A stretch of DNA of 63,927 nucleotides, filler included, from Thermoplasmatota archaeon (lineage in GTDB: Archaea; Thermoplasmatota; E2; JACPAO01; JAHFTW01): assembly GCA_041623215.1 (NCBI GenBank). It is 6 parts of 6 records of this genome, joined end to end, with 100 filler letters (N's around TTAATTAATTAA, not from the genome) between each part and the next. Parts side by side here need not be neighbours in the genome. Positions count along the whole stretch, not along the records: positions 11,022 to 21,792 come from JBFJXH010000058.1; 5 more parts are not named here. One strand, 5' to 3'. Position numbers and translations under genes: made by a program. Numbering within the stretch: position 1 is the stretch's first letter; every line of letters begins with the position of its first letter. The notes under the pieces were generated by a model, which was not told where the DNA came from, did not search any database, and worked only from the letters and a program-made list of their open reading frames with translations. Of the stretch, positions 11,022 through 21,792 are shown piece by piece.

Positions 11022-14000
11022 GCAATGTAATCGGCGACGGCGCGAAGCGTCGGGTAGTCCTTGATTTGCAAGCCATCCTGAAGCGGCACCTCATACGCCT
11101 CGCGAATCAAACCAAACAACTCCGCCTGCTTCACCGTATCAATCCCCAAATCCGCCTCCATGTCCAAATCAGGCTCCAGCAACTCTACCGGGTAGCCGGT
11201 CTTTTCGGCGACCAGTTTTGTCAATTGGGCGAGGACCGCGTCCGAATCCACGGCAGCGGCTGGCTCGGCGGTTGGTGCAGCTACGGGCGGCGAGGCGACA
11301 GCTTCCTCAATCGGAGATGGCGTTAGCGCTGAGTCAGACTCGACTTGGGCGACGGCGGGCGGCGGCTCGACATCGATCGTTTCAGCGCGGGCCCGCAGTT
11401 GGCGGTTTTCGACGAACAGGGCGGCTCGATTGGCGTTGACGGTGCTTCCAAGCCAAGCCTCGTATTGCATAGCATCGGCGACGCGTTCATTCTCACGGGC
11501 AACCAACTGCGTTAGCGTCATGGCGACTTGACTTCCGAAGCCCGCTGCCAAACGAACGGCATAACGAACATCCACCTCACCGCCATCGCTCAGACGGAGA
11601 TTGCCAAGCTCAGGGTCGGCATCACGGAAGTTGGCAATCGGGGGCGCCCGTCCACGTTGCAGACACTTGAGGGCGATGGCGTCCTCAACCCCGGCACCTT
11701 GCGGGTGTCCCGTGAAACCCTTGGTGTTGGCAATCGTTACCTGGTCAGCTGCGTCTCCAAATGCCTGGCGCAAGGCAGCGATTTCAGCCGAGGCACTTCC
11801 GCCTCGAGCCGGCGTGTAGGTTTCATGGCTCATGAAGAGGGTTTCACCGGCAATGGCGGCCGGGTCAAGTCCACTGGCTTGCACAAGCGCTCGCATCTCG
11901 GCCGCAATGTGAGCCACATCCAAACGGCTACCGTGGAAGGCAGAATTACTGATGCGTGTGGCCAACAGCCGTGCGATGGGCCGCATGCCCCGACTCGTGA
12001 TGCTTGCCTCATCCTCAACGACCAAGCCGACGGCCCCCATCCCCACAATCATTCCGTGGCGGCGTCGGTCAAACGGCAACGCTGCTTCGGCCACATCTTC
12101 CTTGGTCGTTGCAGCGCCAGCGGCTAGGAAACCTGCACCAATCCACTCAAAGAGGGCGTCGCTCGTTACATCGTCGGCGCCAATGACCACCACGCGGCGA
12201 GCTCGCCCGGTACGAATCCAATCCTCGGCGATGCCGATGGCTTGCGTCGTGCTAGCGCAGGCAGCGTTAACCTGCGTGTTAGGGCCACGCGCGCCAATGA
12301 ATTGCGCAAATTGCGAATGGCCCATGCTGAGAATGTGGAACAAGAAGCGGCGGTCAAACTCGCCGCCTGCCCGAATACGTTCGACCTCACGTAGAAGAGC
12401 GTCGTGGCCGGGAAACGCACTGGCAAAGATAATCCCCGTGTCATCCCGCATCGATGCAGGAAGCATCCAAGGACCTGGAAGGCGACTTCCCGTGCTGGTT
12501 GTCTTCCAAGTCTGAACTAGGGGAATCCCGGCGTCGCGGAGCGCTTCCAGACCGGCCGCCATGGCGTACTGGGTCGTTCGATCGAGCGTTTCAGTCAAGC
12601 CGGATGGAATACCAAACTCGGCTGCGTCAAACGAGCCGGCTTGCCCGGCCAGCCGGATTACTTGATCCGTTGCCGTAATTGCCTCAAAGTCTGCTGAACC
12701 GTCGTCGCCCTTGCGAAGCCGCGTGATTTTCTTGCCGACAAGTCGCGCGCGCGTGCTCTCGTCAACCGCATCGATAAGGTTCTCACCCGCCAAAATTCGG
12801 TCGAAGTTGTCGGGGTCAAATACTGACTTGTTGCGGCCGGGAAGCCCCACACTCACGCCACTCACAGCGACCGAAACGCGCTCCGGTACAGCCGCCTCAA
12901 GTGGCCGCCCTCCGGCATGGGCCGGCATGGAAATCGGGCGCGAATTGCCTGCTCCCGGACGGTTATCCGGCCGCATGAACGCCGCTCTGGGATCCAGATG
13001 TTCAGCAGTATAAACGGCCCCGTCTTGCAGGCTTGGCAATTGGGGCTCATAGCCCCATGCTCCCAGGAAAGCAAACAATTCGTTGACGTGTGTGATGCCA
13101 CCCTTTTTGGGATGATTGCTGGCGATGGCTACGCTGCCGCCTTTGCCCTGCAGGATGTCGTTGGCAAATCCGGTAAGGGCCTTCTTGGGACCAACTTCAA
13201 TGAAGGTTCGAACACCATCCTCGAACATTTTCTCCACGATGCCAATCCATTCAACGGGCGAGGCCACCTGCTTCGCTAAGTTGTCGCGAATCGCTTCCGG
13301 GTCATCGGGATAATCTGCGGCACCCACATTGCTGATTACCCGAACACTGGGAGGTTGGACGTTCAAGCGGCCTAGAACACGGCGCAGCGGTTCACTGGCG
13401 GGAGCGACGATGCTTGAATGGAATGCCGCTGAAACGGGCAGTTCAACAACCGAGAGGCCGCGCGACTCACAAGCTGACATCGCCTTGATGACGGCTTCGC
13501 TGGCGCCGGCAATGACGGTCTGGCTGGGGCAATTCTTGTTGGCGGGAATAACGTAGCCATCCACGTTGGCAATGGCGTCTTGCACCGTTTGCCAATCCGC
13601 AGAGACGCTTGCCATCTTGCCGAGATCGGGTACGTCCACGCCAGCCATCTCGCGGCCCCGCGCCGCCACCGCATGCAGCGCGTCTTCGAAGCTGAGGACC
13701 TCCGCCGCCACGAGCGCACCGTATTCACCCAGGCTGTGCCCAGCGACCACATCAGGCTGGATGCCCCATTGGCGGAGCAACCGAAGCAGGGCAACATCCG
13801 CCGCCAACACGGCCGGCTGCGTAAATTCTGTCAGTCGCAATTTTTCTTCCGCGGCCTTGCGCGTGTCGGGTGTGTCCGGCGTTGGCCAGATGACATCCGT
13901 CAATTTGCAGCCAATTTCGGATTCCAAGACGCGATCGGCCTCGCGGAAGGTTTCCGCAACCACCCGGTATTTGGCCGCCAAATCCCGGCACATGCCAACA

Positions 14001-15913
14001 TACTGAGTGCCTTGGCCGGGGAAGAGAAACGCCACCTTGCCCTTGGGCTTACCTTGGCCCAAGAAGACACCCTGATTGAACGCGAGGCGCCCCGCTCCCT
14101 TGGGGTCCGCCATGGCACGTTCGGCAAGTGCCAGGCGCTTGGGCACGTCTGCAGGATCGGCGACTTCGAAGCCCACCCGCTGCTCGGCAAGAACGCCGTG
14201 GGCAGTGACACCGTGCAGACGGTCACGAAGGCGGGGTCCTTCGCCATTGGCTGCAAAGGATACGGCCCCAAGTTCCGCGCCTACACCGGGCGCATCGAGC
14301 GCCGAAGCCACCAGTGGCTCTGCTTCCAGCATGGCGCCACCGGCGGCCATGTGTGCGGCAAACGCTCCTTGGTCAAACGTAGCAGCGCCTGCTTCTACCG
14401 GGATAGCGGCCGCTTCGACTTCGCCTGCCAAAGCAAGGTCATCCGGCATGGCATTGGTGGCTTCCTCCAGCACTACGTGGAAGTTTGTGCCGCCAAATCC
14501 GAAGGACGATACGGCTGCACGGCGCGGGTGATGGGGCGGGCGGGGGAACTCTTGCACTTCCCGGGCGACGGTGAAGGGCGCTGTATCCCATTGGATGCGT
14601 GGATTGAGCGTTTCGACGTTCAGGCTCGGGGGAATTCGTCCATGCTTCAAGCAAAGGGCGGTCTTCAGGACGCCGGCCGCACCTGCGGCAGCCTTGAGGT
14701 GGCCAATGTTGCTCTTGACGGAACCGACCGCAATGCTACCCGGTGCAGCGCTTGCTTGTGCATCGACAAAAGCGGCCGCCACCGACTCCAGTTCTGTTGG
14801 GTCCCCAACCGGGGTGCTTGTTCCATGCGCTTCGAGGTAACCGATGGTTGCCGGGTCAATGCCGGCTGCTTCGTACGCGCGACGCACGGCCTTGACCTGC
14901 CCCGCCGGATTGGGCGCTGTAATTCCCTTGCCCTTGCCATCACTGCTGGCGCCGATGCCGCGAATCGTGGCATACACTTGGTCACCGTTGGCTAGGGCAT
15001 CCGACAAGCGCTTGAGGACGAACATGGCACAGCCTTCGCCCATGACAAAACCATTGGCGGCCGCATCAAAGGGCCGCGAGCCGTCCGGGGACAACGCTCC
15101 AATCTTGCTGAATTGGATGTAAGCCGTTACGTCCATGGAACGGTCACTACCGCCCCAGACGACCACATCGTTTTCGCCCCGGCGCAAGGTATCCACGGCA
15201 GCATCAAGGGCGGCCAAGCTGCTAGCGCAAGCTGCGTCGGTCGTGAAGTTCTTGCCGCCGAGGTCGAACGCGTTGGCAATGCGCCCGGCGGCCACATTGC
15301 TCAGATGCCCAGGCATGGTGTCTTCGGTGACTGGATTTGTGTTTGCCTTGAACGTCGTCTCCACGCGTTCGAGAACGGCGTCCCGACGCGAGTCCGGCAG
15401 GGCCTGGAAATCGGGGTCCGCCCGCAAGGCGGCTGCGACTTCGGGCCAGTAGAGACGCTTGCTCACGGCTTTTTGGATTTCTCCACCCATCGCGTTTCCG
15501 AGGATGACGGCGCAGCGATCACGGTCGAAGGCCGCGCCATCGTCGCCCCGTAGTCCTGTTGCCAGCCCCGCGTCCAGCAATGCCTGCCGGGTGGCCGATA
15601 GCGCCCAGCGCTGGCTAGCATCCACCTGATTGACCACGTTGGGTGGCATGCGATAGGCCAAGCCGTCGAAGGCATCATCCATGACGAAAGCCCCAATCTT
15701 GGCGTACGTCTTGTCGGCTGCCTTACGGTCGTCCGACCAAAACAAGTCGGGGTCCCAGCGGTCCTTGGGCACCTCGCGGATGCTCGAGCGGCCGGCGAGC
15801 AGGTTGTTCCAAAAGGTGGCAACATCGGGTGCATCAGGCAAGACACAGCCGGCGCCGACGATGGCAATGGGTTCGTTCGGATGCGAGCGGGGGGACGGAG
15901 TCATAGTGGACAT
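11022..15913 (-). CDS. Type I polyketide/fatty-acid synthase (KS-AT-KS-ACP...), 3'-truncated at contig end
   Basis: KS1 about 15875-14460 (DAACASS, EAHGTST, KSNIGHL, SSFGFGGTN). AT about 14040-13060 (FPGQG, GHSLG, SAAFHS). KS2 about 12880-11510 (NAACAST, SHETYT, TKGFTGH, GFGS). Pro/Ala/Glu linker, then ACP about 11245-11022 (KTGYP, DLGIDTVKQ). Confidence 0.93.
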
Positions 15914-16011
15914 GGTATCCAGGGTGCGGTTGGCGGAATCGGAAAGAGGCAGGGGAAGGTGGAACAGGTAAGGGCAGTCTGGCGACGGCCAGCGAGACCA
16001 GCTTGATGCGG

Positions 16012-17715
16012 CTACAGGGGCGTGAGCCCGTGCTTTTTCTCCGGACGTGTCTCCCGCTTGTTGAGAGCGGGAAGCAGCGCGGCGATGAGGCGCGGGCGGG
16101 TTTCGCGAGGCTCGATGATATCGTCAATCCACCCTCGTTCTGCTGCCACGTAGGGGTTGTTGAAGGCCTCCTGGTATTCCTGCGTGAACGCCTCCTTGAG
16201 GCGAGCCGCTTCTTCGGGGTCGTCCTCCGCCAGGGCCGCCAGCTTGCGCTTGTGAATGATTTCCACGGCGCCACTTGCACCCATGACGGCGATTTCGGCG
16301 GCAGGCCAGCTGAGATTGCAGTCGGTGCCCACGTGCTTCGAGCCCATGACGATGTAGGCGCCGCCGTAGGACTTGCGTAGCACGACGCTCAGTTTGGGCA
16401 CGGTCGCCTCGCAATAGGCATACAGCAATTTGGCGCCGTTGCGGATGATGCCGCCATGTTCTTGGCCAAGTCCCGGCAGGAATCCAGGCACGTCTACGAA
16501 GCTGATGATGGGGATGTTGAAGGCATCACAGAAGCGAATGAATTTGGCGCCCTTGATGCTGGCTTCGATGTCCAAGGCGCCGGCGAGGACGGCGGGTTGG
16601 TTGGCGACAATTCCAACTGGGACACCGGCCATGCGGCCAAAGCCCACGACGAGGTTTTGGGCCCAGCGCGGTTGCACCTCGAAGAAGCTTCCCACATCCA
16701 CCACGTGATCCACGACGTCCCGAACATCGTACGGCTTTCCTGGGTCGGATGGAACCAGGGTGTCCAATTCGGGGTCGCGGCGGTCAGCCGGGTCTTCGGC
16801 CTCGACGATTGGCAATTCGCCGAGATTGTTGCTGGGCAAGTAGCTCAGCAATTTCCGAATAAGGGCGATGGAGCCATCCTCATCCAGACCACTGAAACTT
16901 GCCACGCCAGACTTGATTTCATGCACCGTTGCCCCGCCCAGCTCTTCCTGGGTTGCCTCTTCCCCGGTGACCGTTTTGACCACGTCGGGGCCAGTGACGA
17001 ACATGTGGCTCGTCTTGTCTGTCATGATGACGAAGTCGGTCAGCGCAGGCGAATAGACGGCGCCGCCGGCGCTGGGGCCGACAATGACGGAGATTTGCGG
17101 AACTACGCCGCTTGCTTCGACATTCTTGAAGAAAATGTCCCCATACCCGGCAAGACTGGCAACGCCCTCTTGGATCCGCGCGCCGCCCGAGTCATTGAAG
17201 CCTATGACGGGGGCCCCCATTTGCATGGCCTGCTTGAGTGTCTTGGCAATCTTTTGGCCGGTTGCGTGGCCCAGGCTGCCACCAAGCACCGTGAAGTCTT
17301 GCGAATAAACGAACACGAGGCGACCGTCAATGGTGCCGTGGCCGCATACCACGCCGTCGCCGTCAAACCGATTCTTGTCGAGTCCAAACGTGGTCGCTTG
17401 GGTCCGCACGAACGGGTCCATCTCAACGAAGGTCCCTGCATCTAGGAGAAGTTCGATGCGTTCTCGTGCCGTGTACTTGCCTTTGGCATGTTGGGATTCG
17501 ATGCGCTTGGCGCCACCGCCTTGCAGGGCCTTGGCCTTGCGCTCGCGAAGCGCGTCGATGGCACTCGCGCTCCCACTTGCCCCTGCATCGTGGTTTGGCT
17601 GCGTGTCGTCCGCTCTACCGCGCAGGCTGTCAGGTTGGAGGACCACTGGTTCAGAGGCCCCGTTACTGGCCGCCGATTCGTCCGCGCTGGGCGAGGCGGG
17701 CGTGGTTGGACTCAT
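16012..17715 (-). CDS. Acyl-CoA carboxylase carboxyltransferase subunit (PccB/AccD family)
   Basis: GKYTARERI, QDFTVLGGSLG, DSGGARIQEG, DVPGFLPG, RKSYGGAY, KKHG C-terminus. Confidence 0.95.
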   Translation of the reverse strand: MSPTTPASPSADESAASNGASEPVVLQPDSLRGRADDTQPNHDAGASGSASAIDALRERKAKALQGGGAKRIESQHAKGKYTARERIELLLDAGTFVEMDPFVRTQATTFGLDKNRFDGDGVVCGHGTIDGRLVFVYSQDFTVLGGSLGHATGQKIAKTLKQAMQMGAPVIGFNDSGGARIQEGVASLAGYGDIFFKNVEASGVVPQISVIVGPSAGGAVYSPALTDFVIMTDKTSHMFVTGPDVVKTVTGEEATQEELGGATVHEIKSGVASFSGLDEDGSIALIRKLLSYLPSNNLGELPIVEAEDPADRRDPELDTLVPSDPGKPYDVRDVVDHVVDVGSFFEVQPRWAQNLVVGFGRMAGVPVGIVANQPAVLAGALDIEASIKGAKFIRFCDAFNIPIISFVDVPGFLPGLGQEHGGIIRNGAKLLYAYCEATVPKLSVVLRKSYGGAYIVMGSKHVGTDCNLSWPAAEIAVMGASGAVEIIHKRKLAALAEDDPEEAARLKEAFTQEYQEAFNNPYVAAERGWIDDIIEPRETRPRLIAALLPALNKRETRPEKKHGLTPL

Positions 17716-17739
17716 GGGTTTGGCCCGGCTAAGGCGCTA

Positions 17740-17850
17740 CTTGAACCTTATCTTGACAAGGGGGGCGCAGCGTCGGCTCACCGCGAGATAGATTTCGGCG
17801 TTTGACGAGGGTTTGCCTTGACGTATCAGATTGACTCGAACATGTCAAGG
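17740..17850 (-). promoter_or_regulatory. Promoter region of the carboxyltransferase-PKS unit: TTCAAG box plus clustered TTGAC/GTCAA half-sites
   Basis: Minus-strand TTCAAG at 17740-17745 (25-30 nt before ATG 17715). TTGAC at 17753, 17802, 17818 and 17831; GTCAA at 17844. Confidence 0.45.
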
Positions 17851-17889
17851 GTCGATGGTGGGCCGGGGTGACGCCAGAAGGCGGCCCGG

Positions 17890-18252
17890 TCAGCGAGCCA
17901 ACAGCACAACGCCCAGGACAATCAGGGCCGCCCCGGCAAGTTTGGGCGCCGTCATTGCCTCGCCGAACCACAAGGCGCTGGCAACGAAGACCAGCACCAG
18001 CCCCAAGCTCGTCATGGTGGGATAGGCCACTGATAGTTGGATGCGCGTCAGGGCGAAGCTGTAGAACGCGAGGGCCAGCGCGAAGCTGACGATGCCCGCT
18101 ACTAGCCACCCGTCCGTGTAAAGCCGGGCGAGGCTACGGGCCGTGGCTACGCCATCGCCGTTTCTGGCAGCGACCTTGAGCAGGATGTTGGCCGTGGCGT
18201 TCAGGACTAAGCCAACGCCCAAGCTCCCCCAATGGAGGACCCCCGCCTGCAT
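17890..18252 (-). CDS. SMR/EamA (DMT) small membrane protein, candidate lipid-phospho-sugar flippase
   Basis: 4 TM, ANILLK, LSVAYP and FGE motifs. ATG overlaps the upstream TGA (TGATG), with GGAGGT before it. Confidence 0.8.
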   Translation of the reverse strand: MQAGVLHWGSLGVGLVLNATANILLKVAARNGDGVATARSLARLYTDGWLVAGIVSFALALAFYSFALTRIQLSVAYPTMTSLGLVLVFVASALWFGEAMTAPKLAGAALIVLGVVLLAR

Positions 18253-19709
18253 CAAGTGACCTCCCTCTGCAGCCACCACGGCAGCCCCACATTGCCTCGC
18301 TTGGTCTTGGCATCCACGAGGCCAGTCCGGCGACCCAATTCGCTCGTGAACTGGCCCTCCGGGTCCAAGCGGTCGCGGATCTTCCGCCAACGGTCCAGCT
18401 GCGGGTACATCGCGGCGACCGTGTCCACATCCATGCACGCATCCTTGGCCAGATAATTTCGCCCCCCATGCGCCAATACTATGGCATCAAGATCTTTGCA
18501 AAATGCGTGAACGCCCGGTTTGGCTGGCATGTCGAGAGCGAGCGTTGCGCCTGGCATGGGGAAGCTGAGCGGCGCCTGCGGCTCGCCGTTACCAAAGCGC
18601 TTGAGGACCGCTAACGGGCTACTTCGTCCGGCCCGGGCCACCTTGGCCAAGATCGCCCGCAAACCTTCCCGCTCTGCATCTGGTGGCAGGACACATTGGT
18701 ATTGGATGAAGCCACGACGCCCATACAAACGGTTCCACTTACCAATGGCATCCAACGGATAGAAATAGGGCAGCATAGGCACCACATGCTTGCCTTCCTT
18801 GGCACGCCCGTAGTAGGCAGCATTGAAGCCTCGGACGGTCCAACGATTCAGGCCCCACCCCGGTGCGTTAAGCGGTATGCCCGGCCGCCGCGGGGGGCGG
18901 AGGGCCAGCGGCTCGTCGGTGGCGGGCACATCATCGGGCGCAGCGTGGTCCGCTTGCATGAGAACCGACCGACCTAGCTGGTCGCCCTTCGCGGCGCAAT
19001 CAATCCAAGCCATGGAGCATTGGAAATCTTGGTCGGTCGCGTGAAAAGCGTCGAGAGCCGCATCGAGATTGGGCGCCTTTGTTGTGGTGGAAGACATCCA
19101 CGCAGACCCAATTGGTTGCAATGCCAGCGTCACATCTAGGATGACACCGGTAAGGCCCATGCCCCCAAGAGTCGCAAAGTAAGCCTCCTTGTTACGGTGG
19201 CGCGTGCAGCGTAGGAGGCGCCCACGGCCATCAAGCAGAGTAAAGGCCAGAACATGCCGACCAAAGGAACCAGCCTCGTGGTGATTCTTGCCGTGCACAT
19301 CCGCGGCGACCGCCCCGCCAAGCGTCACAAACCAGGTGCCAGGGGTTACGGGCAAGAACCAACCGCGCGGCCCGAACGTGGTCACGATTGCCTGCAGGCT
19401 AAGGCCCGCCTCAGCCCGAAGGACTCCTGTTTCCTCGTTCCAGTCAAGGACACCGTCAAGCGCCGTCAAATCCACCACGCCCCCGTTGCCGACGCTGTTG
19501 AGTGCGGCGTCCCCATACGACCGGCCGAGCCCACGGGGAATCATGGGCGCCGCGTGCCGGGTCGCATACGGGACGTCGTCGCGACTCGGTGGCCGCATGA
19601 CGTCGCAGTCCAAGCGGGGATGATTACCCCAGCCCGATAGTCGCTCGCGTGACGCCATGCCAGGTGGCGCCTCCTCATCGAGCGTTGTACGTCCTGCGGA
19701 CCGGCTCAT
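18252..19709 (-). CDS. DprE1-like FAD-binding oxidoreductase (prenyl-phosphoribose 2'-oxidase family)
   Basis: RGLGRSYGD, VTPGTWFVTLGGAVAADVHGKNHH, FIQYQ, LKRFG, LSFP, YLAKD. ATGA overlap with the ubiA-like stop; alternative start at 19658. Confidence 0.88.
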   Translation of the reverse strand: MSRSAGRTTLDEEAPPGMASRERLSGWGNHPRLDCDVMRPPSRDDVPYATRHAAPMIPRGLGRSYGDAALNSVGNGGVVDLTALDGVLDWNEETGVLRAEAGLSLQAIVTTFGPRGWFLPVTPGTWFVTLGGAVAADVHGKNHHEAGSFGRHVLAFTLLDGRGRLLRCTRHRNKEAYFATLGGMGLTGVILDVTLALQPIGSAWMSSTTTKAPNLDAALDAFHATDQDFQCSMAWIDCAAKGDQLGRSVLMQADHAAPDDVPATDEPLALRPPRRPGIPLNAPGWGLNRWTVRGFNAAYYGRAKEGKHVVPMLPYFYPLDAIGKWNRLYGRRGFIQYQCVLPPDAEREGLRAILAKVARAGRSSPLAVLKRFGNGEPQAPLSFPMPGATLALDMPAKPGVHAFCKDLDAIVLAHGGRNYLAKDACMDVDTVAAMYPQLDRWRKIRDRLDPEGQFTSELGRRTGLVDAKTKRGNVGLPWWLQREVT

Positions 19710-20569
19710 GCCACGCTTCCTGCCTGGAGAACGAGCCACATGCTCAGTAGGCCATACGCCAGCACCGTGGCCAACAGTGGCCAGTCGCGCACCAGCGCTT
19801 CCGTGGGTGATTCCCCAGCCGCCGTGTGCTCAACAATGAACCAGTAGCGAAACACGCCGAGTAGAACAAGCGGCAGCGTCGGCGTAAGCTCGGGGCGCAC
19901 GGTCGCAACAAAGAAGCCATAGAACACCACCGTGCTGGTGGCTGCTACTACGGCGTAGCGGTCGAGAAGAGGCAAGGTGTAGGACCCGAGGACGGAGCGT
20001 GCCTCTGGGCCCTGATGCTCCAACTCGGCTCGTCGTTTCATGACCACCAAGAAGAGACTCAGGGAAAGCGTCGCCACGAGCATCCAGTTGCTGACGGCGA
20101 CGGCGATGGCCGCAGCTCCGCCGTAAACCCGGAGCACAAAACCCGCGCTCACAGCAAACAAGTCCAGGACGGGCACTTGCTTCAATCCGATGCTGTAAGC
20201 AACGTTGAGGACAATGTAGCCCGCTGCGAAGGCAGCCACCTTGGGCATGAACCATGCACCGATGGCGCCGGCCGCAATGAGGGCCACGAGCACGGCCAAG
20301 GCGACCTGCGGACTAACGGCACCACTTGCCAGCGGGCGGTGGCGCTTGTCTGGATGCCGCGCGTCTGCCTCGCGGTCACGAAGATCATTGACCACGTACA
20401 CCGCACTTGCCGCCACCGTGAACAGAGCCACCGCGGCCAGCGCCGACAGCGTCGAAGGCACATCGCTAAAGCGGCCGCTGAAGATCAACGGGGCCAATAC
20501 GAAGGCGTTCTTGATCCACTGCTGGGGCCGCAGCAGGCGGATGACGGCGGGCATGCCTCCGTCGCTCAC
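19706..20569 (-). CDS. UbiA-family decaprenyl/polyprenyl-phosphate phosphoribosyltransferase (Rv3806c-like)
   Basis: LLRPQQWIKN, YVVNDLRDREADARHPDKRHRPLASG, GFVLRV, KRRAEL, GESPTE. GGAGGT SD and TTTTCAAG box at 20591-20598. Confidence 0.9.
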   Translation of the reverse strand: MSDGGMPAVIRLLRPQQWIKNAFVLAPLIFSGRFSDVPSTLSALAAVALFTVAASAVYVVNDLRDREADARHPDKRHRPLASGAVSPQVALAVLVALIAAGAIGAWFMPKVAAFAAGYIVLNVAYSIGLKQVPVLDLFAVSAGFVLRVYGGAAAIAVAVSNWMLVATLSLSLFLVVMKRRAELEHQGPEARSVLGSYTLPLLDRYAVVAATSTVVFYGFFVATVRPELTPTLPLVLLGVFRYWFIVEHTAAGESPTEALVRDWPLLATVLAYGLLSMWLVLQAGSVA

Positions 20570-20692
20570 GAACCTCCACTTGGAGCCCTGCTTGAAAACA
20601 CGGCGGTCCGTTCACAGACCCCTTTGGGCAACGCGCGTGGGCCGTCAGCACGCCAAGCGTAGCGTGCGCCGTAGTCATCATCAGCCCCGGCG

Positions 20693-21792
20693 CTACGGAG
20701 TCCAGCCAAGGGGGCGAAGCTCGTAGGCATGCATCAGACCGTACGGCCGCGTGGCATTGACACGCCAGCCCTCAGCTTCCAGGAGGTCAATGACCGCGTC
20801 GCCGTCAATGACGTGGTCAATCACCAACCAAGCCTGCGTTTCGTTGGCTAGCCAGTTGCGCACATAGGGCCCCGACTCATCCATGTCCCTGGTGCGATGC
20901 AACCCGATGACACTGCGCAGGTTCAGATCATCTCTCGTTTGATAGTATTCGAAGACGCAGAACCAATCATCGTCGCGACGGTCATCACAAAGCCCCTCGT
21001 GGAACAATACGTAGGCCCCGGGGTACGCGTGCGTTTCAATGTCGGCCGTCATGCCACGCCAATCCCAGCGAGCAGGATGCCTTGTTTCGCCTACGCCATC
21101 CAGACTTCCGACCAACAAAAGGACAAGAAACACCGGCGCGACCAGACGCGCGGGGACGCGCATGGCACCGCGAACCACCAGCAGAATAAGCGCGGGGAGC
21201 GCCAGGACCGCGTAGCGAGGGGTGAAGATCGGTGGCCCCACCAATGAAAAAAGAAGGGGCAGTAACACGCCTGCCGTCCACCAAATAACCGGTAAGGCAG
21301 CCCCCTTGCGCCAGCGCCAAAGACCCCAAGTAACCAGGATGGCCCACAGGGGCGCAATGAGGTAACTACCGGCTTGCCACCGCACGGTTGCCATCAGGTC
21401 GTCGATGCTTGGCGGGGGAATCCAGAACCCCTGGGACACCCGATTGGCGCGGTCCAAGAAGACGAGGCCATACCAAGGCAAGGCAGCAATGGCTAGGGCC
21501 ACATGCGCCCACCACCAATGTCGCGGGAGGCCGGGAAGCCAAGCAAGGACGGGGGAACGCCACCCCGATGTGGCCGGCGCCGGCTCACCTTCCTTGGGAA
21601 TTTCGGGAGGTGCGCGATTGCTTGCAGGTCCAGTTTCGACGTGCTCAGCCGGCGAGAATTGGCTCGCCAAGGTGGCTGTCGGCGGCGGGTCAAGGCCGTC
21701 ATGCCAGGCCCACCAGGCGGCAGTCAACACGTGCGCCAGGGCGATGAAGAGGCCAAACACGTGCGTATGAATGAGCAGGAACAGTAGCGCCA
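20693..21792 (-). CDS. GT-C fold membrane glycosyltransferase (GT39/PMT/ArnT-like), 5'-truncated
   Basis: Frame open to the contig end. IHTHVFG motif, multiple TMs, FWIPPP, PIFTPRY, DWRG and an extracellular C-terminal domain. Confidence 0.7.

Follow-up and report, generated by a model that had tools for sequence, protein, structure and literature searches.

The locus examined here occupies positions 11022-21792 of the window, a 63,927-nt stretch in which six records of a Thermoplasmatota archaeon genome (GCA_041623215.1, designated G000) are joined with filler, and corresponds to its second contig (JBFJXH010000058.1, designated C58). Six open reading frames (ORFs) were called on the minus strand, encoding in order a GT-C glycosyltransferase, a UbiA-type transferase, a DprE1-like oxidase, a small multidrug resistance (SMR) protein, a carboxyltransferase (AccD) and a polyketide synthase (PKS) type megasynthase (Table 1). 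ORF calls and profile matches agreed with the strand and order given in the original prediction, a reading of the sequence that had likened the locus to the mycobacterial cell-envelope cluster. The UbiA-type and DprE1-like ORFs overlap by 4 nt and the DprE1-like and SMR ORFs by 1 nt, so that SMR is translationally coupled to dprE1; the contig ends truncate the GT-C and PKS ORFs. C58 was interpreted as joining two modules under separate regulation: a cassette of sporadic occurrence, predicted to build and transfer lipid-linked pentofuranose, and an accD-megasynthase operon that is present throughout the lineage and likely makes fatty acyl chains (probability roughly 0.7).

Table 1. Features of contig C58, in window coordinates.
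Feature	Position	Strand	Evidence or remark
GT-C glycosyltransferase, PMT_2/ArnT-like, 3' part	20693..21792	-	5' part with W-x-DE motif at end of G000:C36
UbiA-family polyprenyl-phosphate phosphoribosyltransferase (PPPRS; DPPRS-like)	19706..20569	-	Pfam UbiA; without fused HAD phosphatase
DprE1-like FAD oxidase	18252..19709	-	NCBIfam DprE1 446 bits (cut-off 500); no dprE2 after the gene
SMR/ArnE-F-like protein, 120 aa, 4 helices	17890..18252	-	Pfam Multi_Drug_Res and EamA; predicted lipid-linked sugar flippase
Operator-like motif TTGACATGTTCGAGTCAA, conserved, semi-palindromic	17831..17848	-	Upstream of accD, inside the SMR-accD gap
Acyl-CoA carboxylase carboxyltransferase (accD/pccB type)	16012..17715	-	Pfam Carboxyl_trans 640 bits
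Megasynthase, 5' part	11022..15913	-	KS1 14456-15874, AT 13154-14038, KS2 about 11474-12874, ACP 11024-11227

Both ends of C58 were extended by contig overlaps within the assembly (1.94 Mb, 223 contigs, 88% complete). The end of C36, with the SUF operon upstream, overlaps C58 by 124 nt, exactly and in frame; C179 shares 141 nt with the PKS end, an overlap length more frequent than any other in this assembly, and an overlap with C37 (186 nt, 98% identical) continues the PKS gene. The join of C36 to C58 relies on the C36 overlap, the uninterrupted frame, synteny and one run contig reaching 2.5 kb beyond the end of C58, rather than on reads. The order inferred from these joins is SUF - GT-C - PPPRS - dprE1 - SMR - accD - synthase - bioY - accC - accB - enoyl-CoA hydratase. 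Two sequencing runs of one study, labelled marine metagenome and possibly the source samples, yielded contigs spanning 16344-19044 without gaps (X1) and 16784-18345 (X2), and misassembly thus explains neither the SMR-accD junction nor the fact that no gene separates dprE1 from SMR. LeuRS on a neighbouring contig of the window is of the archaeal type, and the named records matching the synthase were Thermoplasmatota in 10 of 12 cases. Just upstream of the SUF operon, G000:C36 (locus L028, 4652-8349) also encodes a protein with PKD repeats and another PMT_2 GT-C.

The full megasynthase, continued on C179 and C37, has the architecture KS-AT-KS-ACPn-KR-DH-PPTase (ketosynthase, acyltransferase, ketosynthase, tandem acyl carrier proteins, ketoreductase, dehydratase and phosphopantetheinyl transferase), and bioY, accC, accB and an enoyl-CoA hydratase gene follow downstream on the overlapping contigs. 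Catalytic motifs were read in KS1 (DAAC/EAHGT/GH), AT (GHSLG and AAFHS), KR (YxxAN), DH (DH..P) and PPTase (GIDLE/WxxKE). KS2 may also be catalytic, because its Cys, His and His motifs are kept in 114 of 120 listed homologues (the remaining six failed the Cys regular expression). The same 120 proteins, type R synthases from archaea and bacteria, have Thr (LGIDT) at the ACP attachment position in 331 of 332 motifs; the ACP of G129 reads LGIDS. Two ACPs were read in G000, where the contig break falls inside the repeat, and 2-6 in relatives; the full-length synthase of G001 has 2749 aa. The PPTase is fused to the synthase in this order and is a separate downstream gene in the loci of families f31 and f13, which show a fabI-synthase-PPTase layout. 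The nearest named non-archaeal matches of the synthase are mostly Chloroflexota (including Roseiflexus, 56%) and Myxococcota, at 54-60%. Of the three accD paralogues in the genome, that of C58 is the synthase-linked one (71-84% to family orthologues, about 60% and 38% to paralogues). Variants were seen elsewhere: extra ACP motifs N-terminal to KS1 in G053 and G209, N-terminal extensions of about 300-350 aa in G026 and G161, and, at G007:C1:334000-350000, another PKS gene that looks unrelated (1019 aa, 33%) and has large ORFs next to it.

Distributions were scored in an order-level sample of 38 genomes (G000 included) and a phylum sample of 401 Thermoplasmatota genomes. The synthase was detected in 37 of the 38 (the sole negative, G002, is 85% complete) and in 132 of the 401, about a third. 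By family it was present in f31 (57/58), f23 (22/24), f15 (8/9) and f13 (13/36), and was not found in any genome of f4 (54 genomes), f10 (48) or f5 (14). A FabI-like reductase was present in 37/38 order genomes; its gene adjoins that of the synthase in G001, and the same adjacency was seen at 9 of 15 loci taken from other families. PlsC-like acyltransferases were present in 38/38 and in 131 of the 132 synthase carriers. In the phylum a further 39 genomes held PlsC only and 230 held neither, a pattern among related genomes rather than a statistical test. No other KS was found in G000 beyond weak thiolase-level matches, and in five of five genomes ACP matches were confined to the synthase. Genes for a glycerol-1-phosphate (G1P) dehydrogenase-like protein and geranylgeranylglyceryl phosphate (GGGP) synthase were present in the same proportion (5/5), and therefore ether lipids can be made. 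Homology and motifs accounted for all activities of the fatty acid cycle, namely acetyl-CoA carboxylase (ACC), malonyl acyltransferase (MAT), KS, KR, DH, enoyl reductase (ER), ACP and PPTase, and for an acyl sink. In G005 (C1:77221-78867) and G045 (C82:1845-3420) the FabI-like gene adjoins a PAP2 phosphatase gene.

Type R synthases were described, in the cited passages of Shulse & Allen 2011 (PMC3098273), as KS-MAT-CLF-ACP3-6-KR (CLF, chain length factor) plus a PPTase, once with an ACC gene, and were classed as secondary lipid synthases with the product listed as unknown. The archaeal enzyme shares with that description the order KS-MAT-KS/CLF-ACPn-KR in one gene, the PPTase and an associated ACC gene. 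It differs in being near-universal in its order, in its fused PPTase, in the presence of a DH, in a FabI-like ER supplied in trans and in a full acc operon; its second KS keeps Cys/His/His and is not a dead CLF, and its ACP site is GIDT (Thr). On the simplest reading, which appears somewhat probable, the megasynthase is an ACP-dependent archaeal fatty acid synthase working beside the ether-lipid pathway. AccD, AccC and AccB, with BioY, would provide malonyl-CoA; the synthase would be primed by its own PPTase, its KS, KR and DH iterating on tandem ACPs; the FabI-like reductase would work in trans, and PlsC-like acyltransferases would move the chains into ester lipids. The assignment of type R to secondary lipid synthesis allows instead a specialised product (long-chain alkyl, diol, alkene or polyketide), with PlsC using scavenged acyl-CoA. 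That reading, considered doubtful although far from negligible, is consistent with the 39 genomes that have PlsC but no detected synthase, with the capacity for ether lipids, and with two intact KS domains, which are unusual; near-universal retention, a dedicated carboxylase operon, linkage to FabI and the absence of any separate FabF or ACP among the genes found argue against it. De novo fatty acid synthesis has likewise been proposed in archaea for Sulfolobus, by an ACP-independent synthase in the cited part of that report (bioRxiv 10.1101/2024.07.05.601840), and T1PKS (type I PKS) was given as the second-largest class of biosynthetic gene cluster in marine archaeal genomes in the cited part of PMC10304266. 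The literature search, with most subscription papers beyond its reach, returned no description of this synthase in Thermoplasmatota or archaea.

In the cassette half, the UbiA-type protein had as its best NCBIfam model decaprenyl-phosphate phosphoribosyltransferase (PRK12324; 222 bits, below the cut-off of 234), and its sole relatives in the PDB were the mycobacterial decaprenyl-phosphate phosphoribosyltransferase (DPPRS) structures 8j8j and 8j8k (E 3e-36), with which the motifs KN, NDxxDxxxDxxHP and KRxAEL align. The DprE1-like oxidase aligned over its full length with DprE1 in the PDB (E 1.6e-90), including GRSYGD, GKNHH, QYQ and LAKD; where the mycobacterial NICVD motif has Cys, the archaeal protein has Ala. 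All ArnF/ArnE and efflux models scored the SMR protein (four hydrophobic segments) under their cut-offs; its gene holds the equivalent position in the cassettes of G001 and G155. The part of the GT-C within the window had no Pfam match, its PMT_2 N-terminus sitting on the end of C36, and no match was obtained when the GT-C was aligned against PDB sequences. A structure model of its G045 homologue (28-30% identical to the G000 GT-C; pLDDT 78.7) matched ArnT best (TM 0.62), followed by Pmt4 and oligosaccharyltransferases, with AftD ranked 26th and EmbC 40th.

These homologies to PPPRS, DprE1, a flippase and a GT-C bear out the gene identities proposed originally and the prediction that the first four genes serve lipid-linked pentose transfer. 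Three-component pentofuranosylation systems, as set out by Kelly et al. 2024 (PMC11127046) for Citrobacter youngae O1/O2 (ORF15, PPPRS; ORF14, flippase; ORF12, GT136), combine a PPPRS with a small flippase (EmrE/ArnE-like or GtrA) and with a GT-C resembling ArnT, which complete the route, and have DprE1/E2 as optional epimerases whose presence predicts arabinofuranose. The G000 genes have the PPPRS, the small flippase (activity predicted) and the GT-C fold, and are regarded by homology as a cassette of this kind with a predicted function. They differ in their archaeal host, no archaeal example appearing in the main text and supplement text of PMC11127046, and in lacking the fused HAD phosphatase and dprE2. 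The literature search found lipid-linked pentofuranose transfer described only in bacteria.

In the proposed route, the PPPRS would transfer ribose-5-phosphate from phosphoribosyl pyrophosphate (PRPP) to an isoprenoid phosphate carrier. The phosphatase required for lipid-linked ribose phosphate is neither fused nor in the cassette, and an unlinked enzyme, for which G000 has one PAP2 gene, might strip the 5'-phosphate. The SMR protein would then flip the lipid-linked donor, and the ArnT/PMT-like GT-C would attach the pentose outside the membrane, the predicted acceptor most likely being a surface glycan or glycoprotein. AglB was present in 5/5 tested genomes, and in G005 a GT-C homologue lies within 4 kb of aglB; this is a modest hint that the acceptor may be a protein glycan. 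Relatives with both dprE1 and dprE2 would deliver arabinofuranose. dprE2 adjoins dprE1 in G001, G045 and G155; in the 88% complete G000 assembly it was found neither beside dprE1 nor elsewhere (best E 1e-4, 30%), and no significant remnant was detected between dprE1 and SMR. Having apparently lost dprE2, G000 would supply ribofuranose unless another reductase stood in. This loss, with the want of a phosphatase gene in the cassette, is also what decay would produce, the oxidase becoming a dead end and the cassette making a ribofuranose donor only, or nothing. Such decay is possible, but four open ORFs, conserved motifs, tight overlaps and an arrangement repeated in contigs of two runs speak against it, as do the PAP2 gene elsewhere and the incompleteness of the genome.

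DprE1-like genes were rare, occurring in 3/38 order genomes and 3/401 phylum genomes, four genomes in total (G000, G001, G045 and G155). The nearest named DprE1 matches are bacterial (about 48-51% identity). In a tree of 71 rows, about half of 120 matches and built by a quick method only, G000 and G001 grouped at an SH-aLRT of 86 and G045 and G155 formed long branches, so the tree neither establishes nor rules out that the archaeal copies arose once. PPPRS genes were more frequent (14/38). The other PPPRS loci of the order stand mostly among genes for GT-C, GT87, an LPG-synthase-like flippase, an epimerase and a methyltransferase, on contigs other than that of the synthase. In genus g5 and in other families, PPPRS clusters without DprE1 hold a GT87-like protein of about 1100 aa, a methyltransferase, an LPG-synthase-like flippase, an epimerase and an acyltransferase_3; these are possibly ribo-, xylo- or methylated pentofuranose systems.

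The mycobacterial arabinan/mycolate locus also holds emb/aft, accD4, pks13, fadD32 and antigen 85 genes, and Pks13 is a non-reducing ACP-KS-AT-ACP-ACP-TE enzyme (TE, thioesterase). The likeness to C58 lies in homologous PPPRS and DprE1, with a GT-C, a carboxyltransferase and a type I synthase nearby; the roles of Rv3806c, Rv3807c, DprE1/E2 and Rv3789 in the mycobacterial arabinan pathway are given in the cited part of PMC11127046. The parallel drawn in the original prediction was nevertheless rejected because its Pks13, Emb and DprE2 features fail. The synthase is of type R (401.6 bits against NCBIfam Pks13, cut-off 2100, with no thioesterase match), and in contrast to Pks13 is reducing and self-priming; the GT-C is ArnT/PMT-like, its relative folding nearest ArnT; the Emb domain PF04602 was found in none of the 4 DprE1 carriers, with the control search positive in C. 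glutamicum; dprE2 was not found in G000; and the two halves are distributed differently. Gene calls on C36, C58, C179 and C37 included no FadD32, antigen 85 or galactan synthases, for which no genome-wide search was made. Each module is a variant of a described bacterial system, and the mycobacterial echo is mostly superficial.

Linkage of the halves was assessed by reading upstream of the accD orthologue in the 37 other order genomes, of which 28 were informative (six had less than 1 kb upstream, two had no located orthologue and one, G027, was of uncertain orthology). sufT lay within 5 kb of the orthologue in 19/28. The slot held cupredoxins in at least 10 genomes (Pfam) and otherwise a pilin, PKD protein, HerA or BNR protein; a lone PMT_2 GT-C occupied it in G041 and G024. 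Twelve of the 14 PPPRS carriers were informative, and 10 of these carry PPPRS away from accD, including the same-genus G001, in which GT-C-PPPRS-E1-E2-SMR is on a separate contig and another gene precedes accD. Only G045 among the 28 had PPPRS and DprE genes at the slot. The original prediction had named, as an outcome opposed to a shared function, halves that are unlinked in relatives and have independent phyletic patterns. The frequencies of PKS, PPPRS and DprE1 given above and the 10 of 12 carriers with PPPRS elsewhere largely accord with that outcome, and G045 departs from it. The repetition in 1 of the 28 speaks against a purely coincidental adjacency. When metagenomes were scanned with a degenerate pattern for the accD C-terminus, the matches were unspecific, with 2/120 loci being order-level accD (74-76% identity); cassette genes were absent from the 5.9 and 1.4 kb upstream of these two, which adds little.

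The SMR-accD gap measures 174 nt (17716-17889), not the 175 nt first stated, and the separate promoter ascribed to it is supported by the accD-linked motif of Table 1. A regular expression composed after viewing 10 regions matched 20/34 accD upstream regions (shuffled controls: 0.1 on average, at most 2); the motif was not detected in G045 or 13 others. An exact genome-wide scan gave 15 matches in 12/38 genomes and none in a reversed control: 10 precede accD, one an acyl-CoA dehydrogenase gene in G000, and four were unassigned. The acyl-CoA dehydrogenase gene (locus L315 of G000:C5, 2911-4068) is preceded by the second-best motif copy of that genome. The motif accompanies accD regardless of the upstream gene, which supports a separate promoter for the accD half. 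A sigma-70 promoter scan returned 0 sites, this model being uninformative for an archaeon.

Several observations weigh against two separate modules. The genomes are related and incomplete (62-99%), so that counts are not independent. No characterisation of the synthase product was found in the literature for any organism, and type R carries no product assignment in the source cited above. Three of the 15 exact motif matches stand at genes without an evident lipid link. The acceptor of ArnT, nearest in fold to the GT-C family, is a lipid according to the cited part of PMC11127046. Lastly, on G045:C118 (locus L107, 696-5659) a divergent dprE1-dprE2-PPPRS-GT-C set is followed 57 nt on, on the same strand and without the motif, by the accD orthologue; cassette and accD are thus adjacent in two of the three DprE1 carriers of the order, which exceeds random expectation, since genes placed at random in a set of about two thousand would seldom produce this one recurrence. 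The G045 locus (PKD gene - dprE1 - dprE2 - PPPRS - GT-C - accD 5' fragment) differs in gene order from those of G000 and G001, with counterparts 38-45% identical; its GT-C resembles the G047 (57%) and G041 (42%) proteins more than that of G000, and its accD fragment is 81-87% identical to the synthase-linked accD of its genus and 62-66% to paralogues.

Such a recurrence, between cassettes so unlike, might reflect selection for co-regulation that twice put pentose cassettes before accD, with the GT-C pentosylating a lipid whose acyl chains the megasynthase made. Slot GT-C genes in four genomes, the ArnT-like fold, the ArnE/F-like flippase and the lack of a motif between GT-C and accD in G045 fit this proposal. 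It is judged unlikely: besides the 10 of 12 PPPRS carriers, two of the four DprE1 carriers (G001 and G155) encode the cassette at another site, the synthase occurs near-universally in its absence, the G000 gap retains the accD motif, and the G045 synthase is on a separate contig behind a divergent SnoaL-like gene. The fuller version, in which an ACP-dependent synthase feeds PlsC ester lipids and the GT-C caps the lipid with pentofuranose to give the archaeal acyl-pentosyl glycolipid originally envisaged, the cassette being recruited twice before accD, is slightly less likely again. Under the two-module interpretation the variable SUF-accD slot would repeatedly acquire envelope genes, GT-Cs among them; this likely explains the adjacency, as pentose-donor genes joining a GT-C in an envelope-gene-collecting slot. 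An artefact of binning or assembly that brought in a bacterial cassette, suggested by the bacterial matches of DprE1, is highly improbable and was rejected on GC and GC3 values matching the neighbours, the bridging run contigs, the same cassette in G001 and flanks that keep the SUF-slot-accD-synthase synteny of the order.

The cassette offers predicted archaeal instances of lipid-linked pentofuranose transfer. The megasynthase is of greater interest because, to our knowledge, fatty acid synthesis by an ACP-dependent megasynthase is not expected of archaea, and here, in a third of the sampled Thermoplasmatota genomes, one gene encodes a self-priming, ACP-dependent synthase that is accompanied by carboxylase, FabI and PlsC partners. 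Should it make fatty acids, it would provide an enzyme for asking whether uncultured archaea build mixed membranes, a lipid-divide question of long standing, and the uncharacterised type R family would gain a product. Mechanistically odd in themselves are the Thr conserved at the ACP site and the presence of two intact KS domains. Elsewhere in the window, on contig 3 (23380-26171), ORFs resembling a ccmABC/ccmE haem-export set were recognised by eye.

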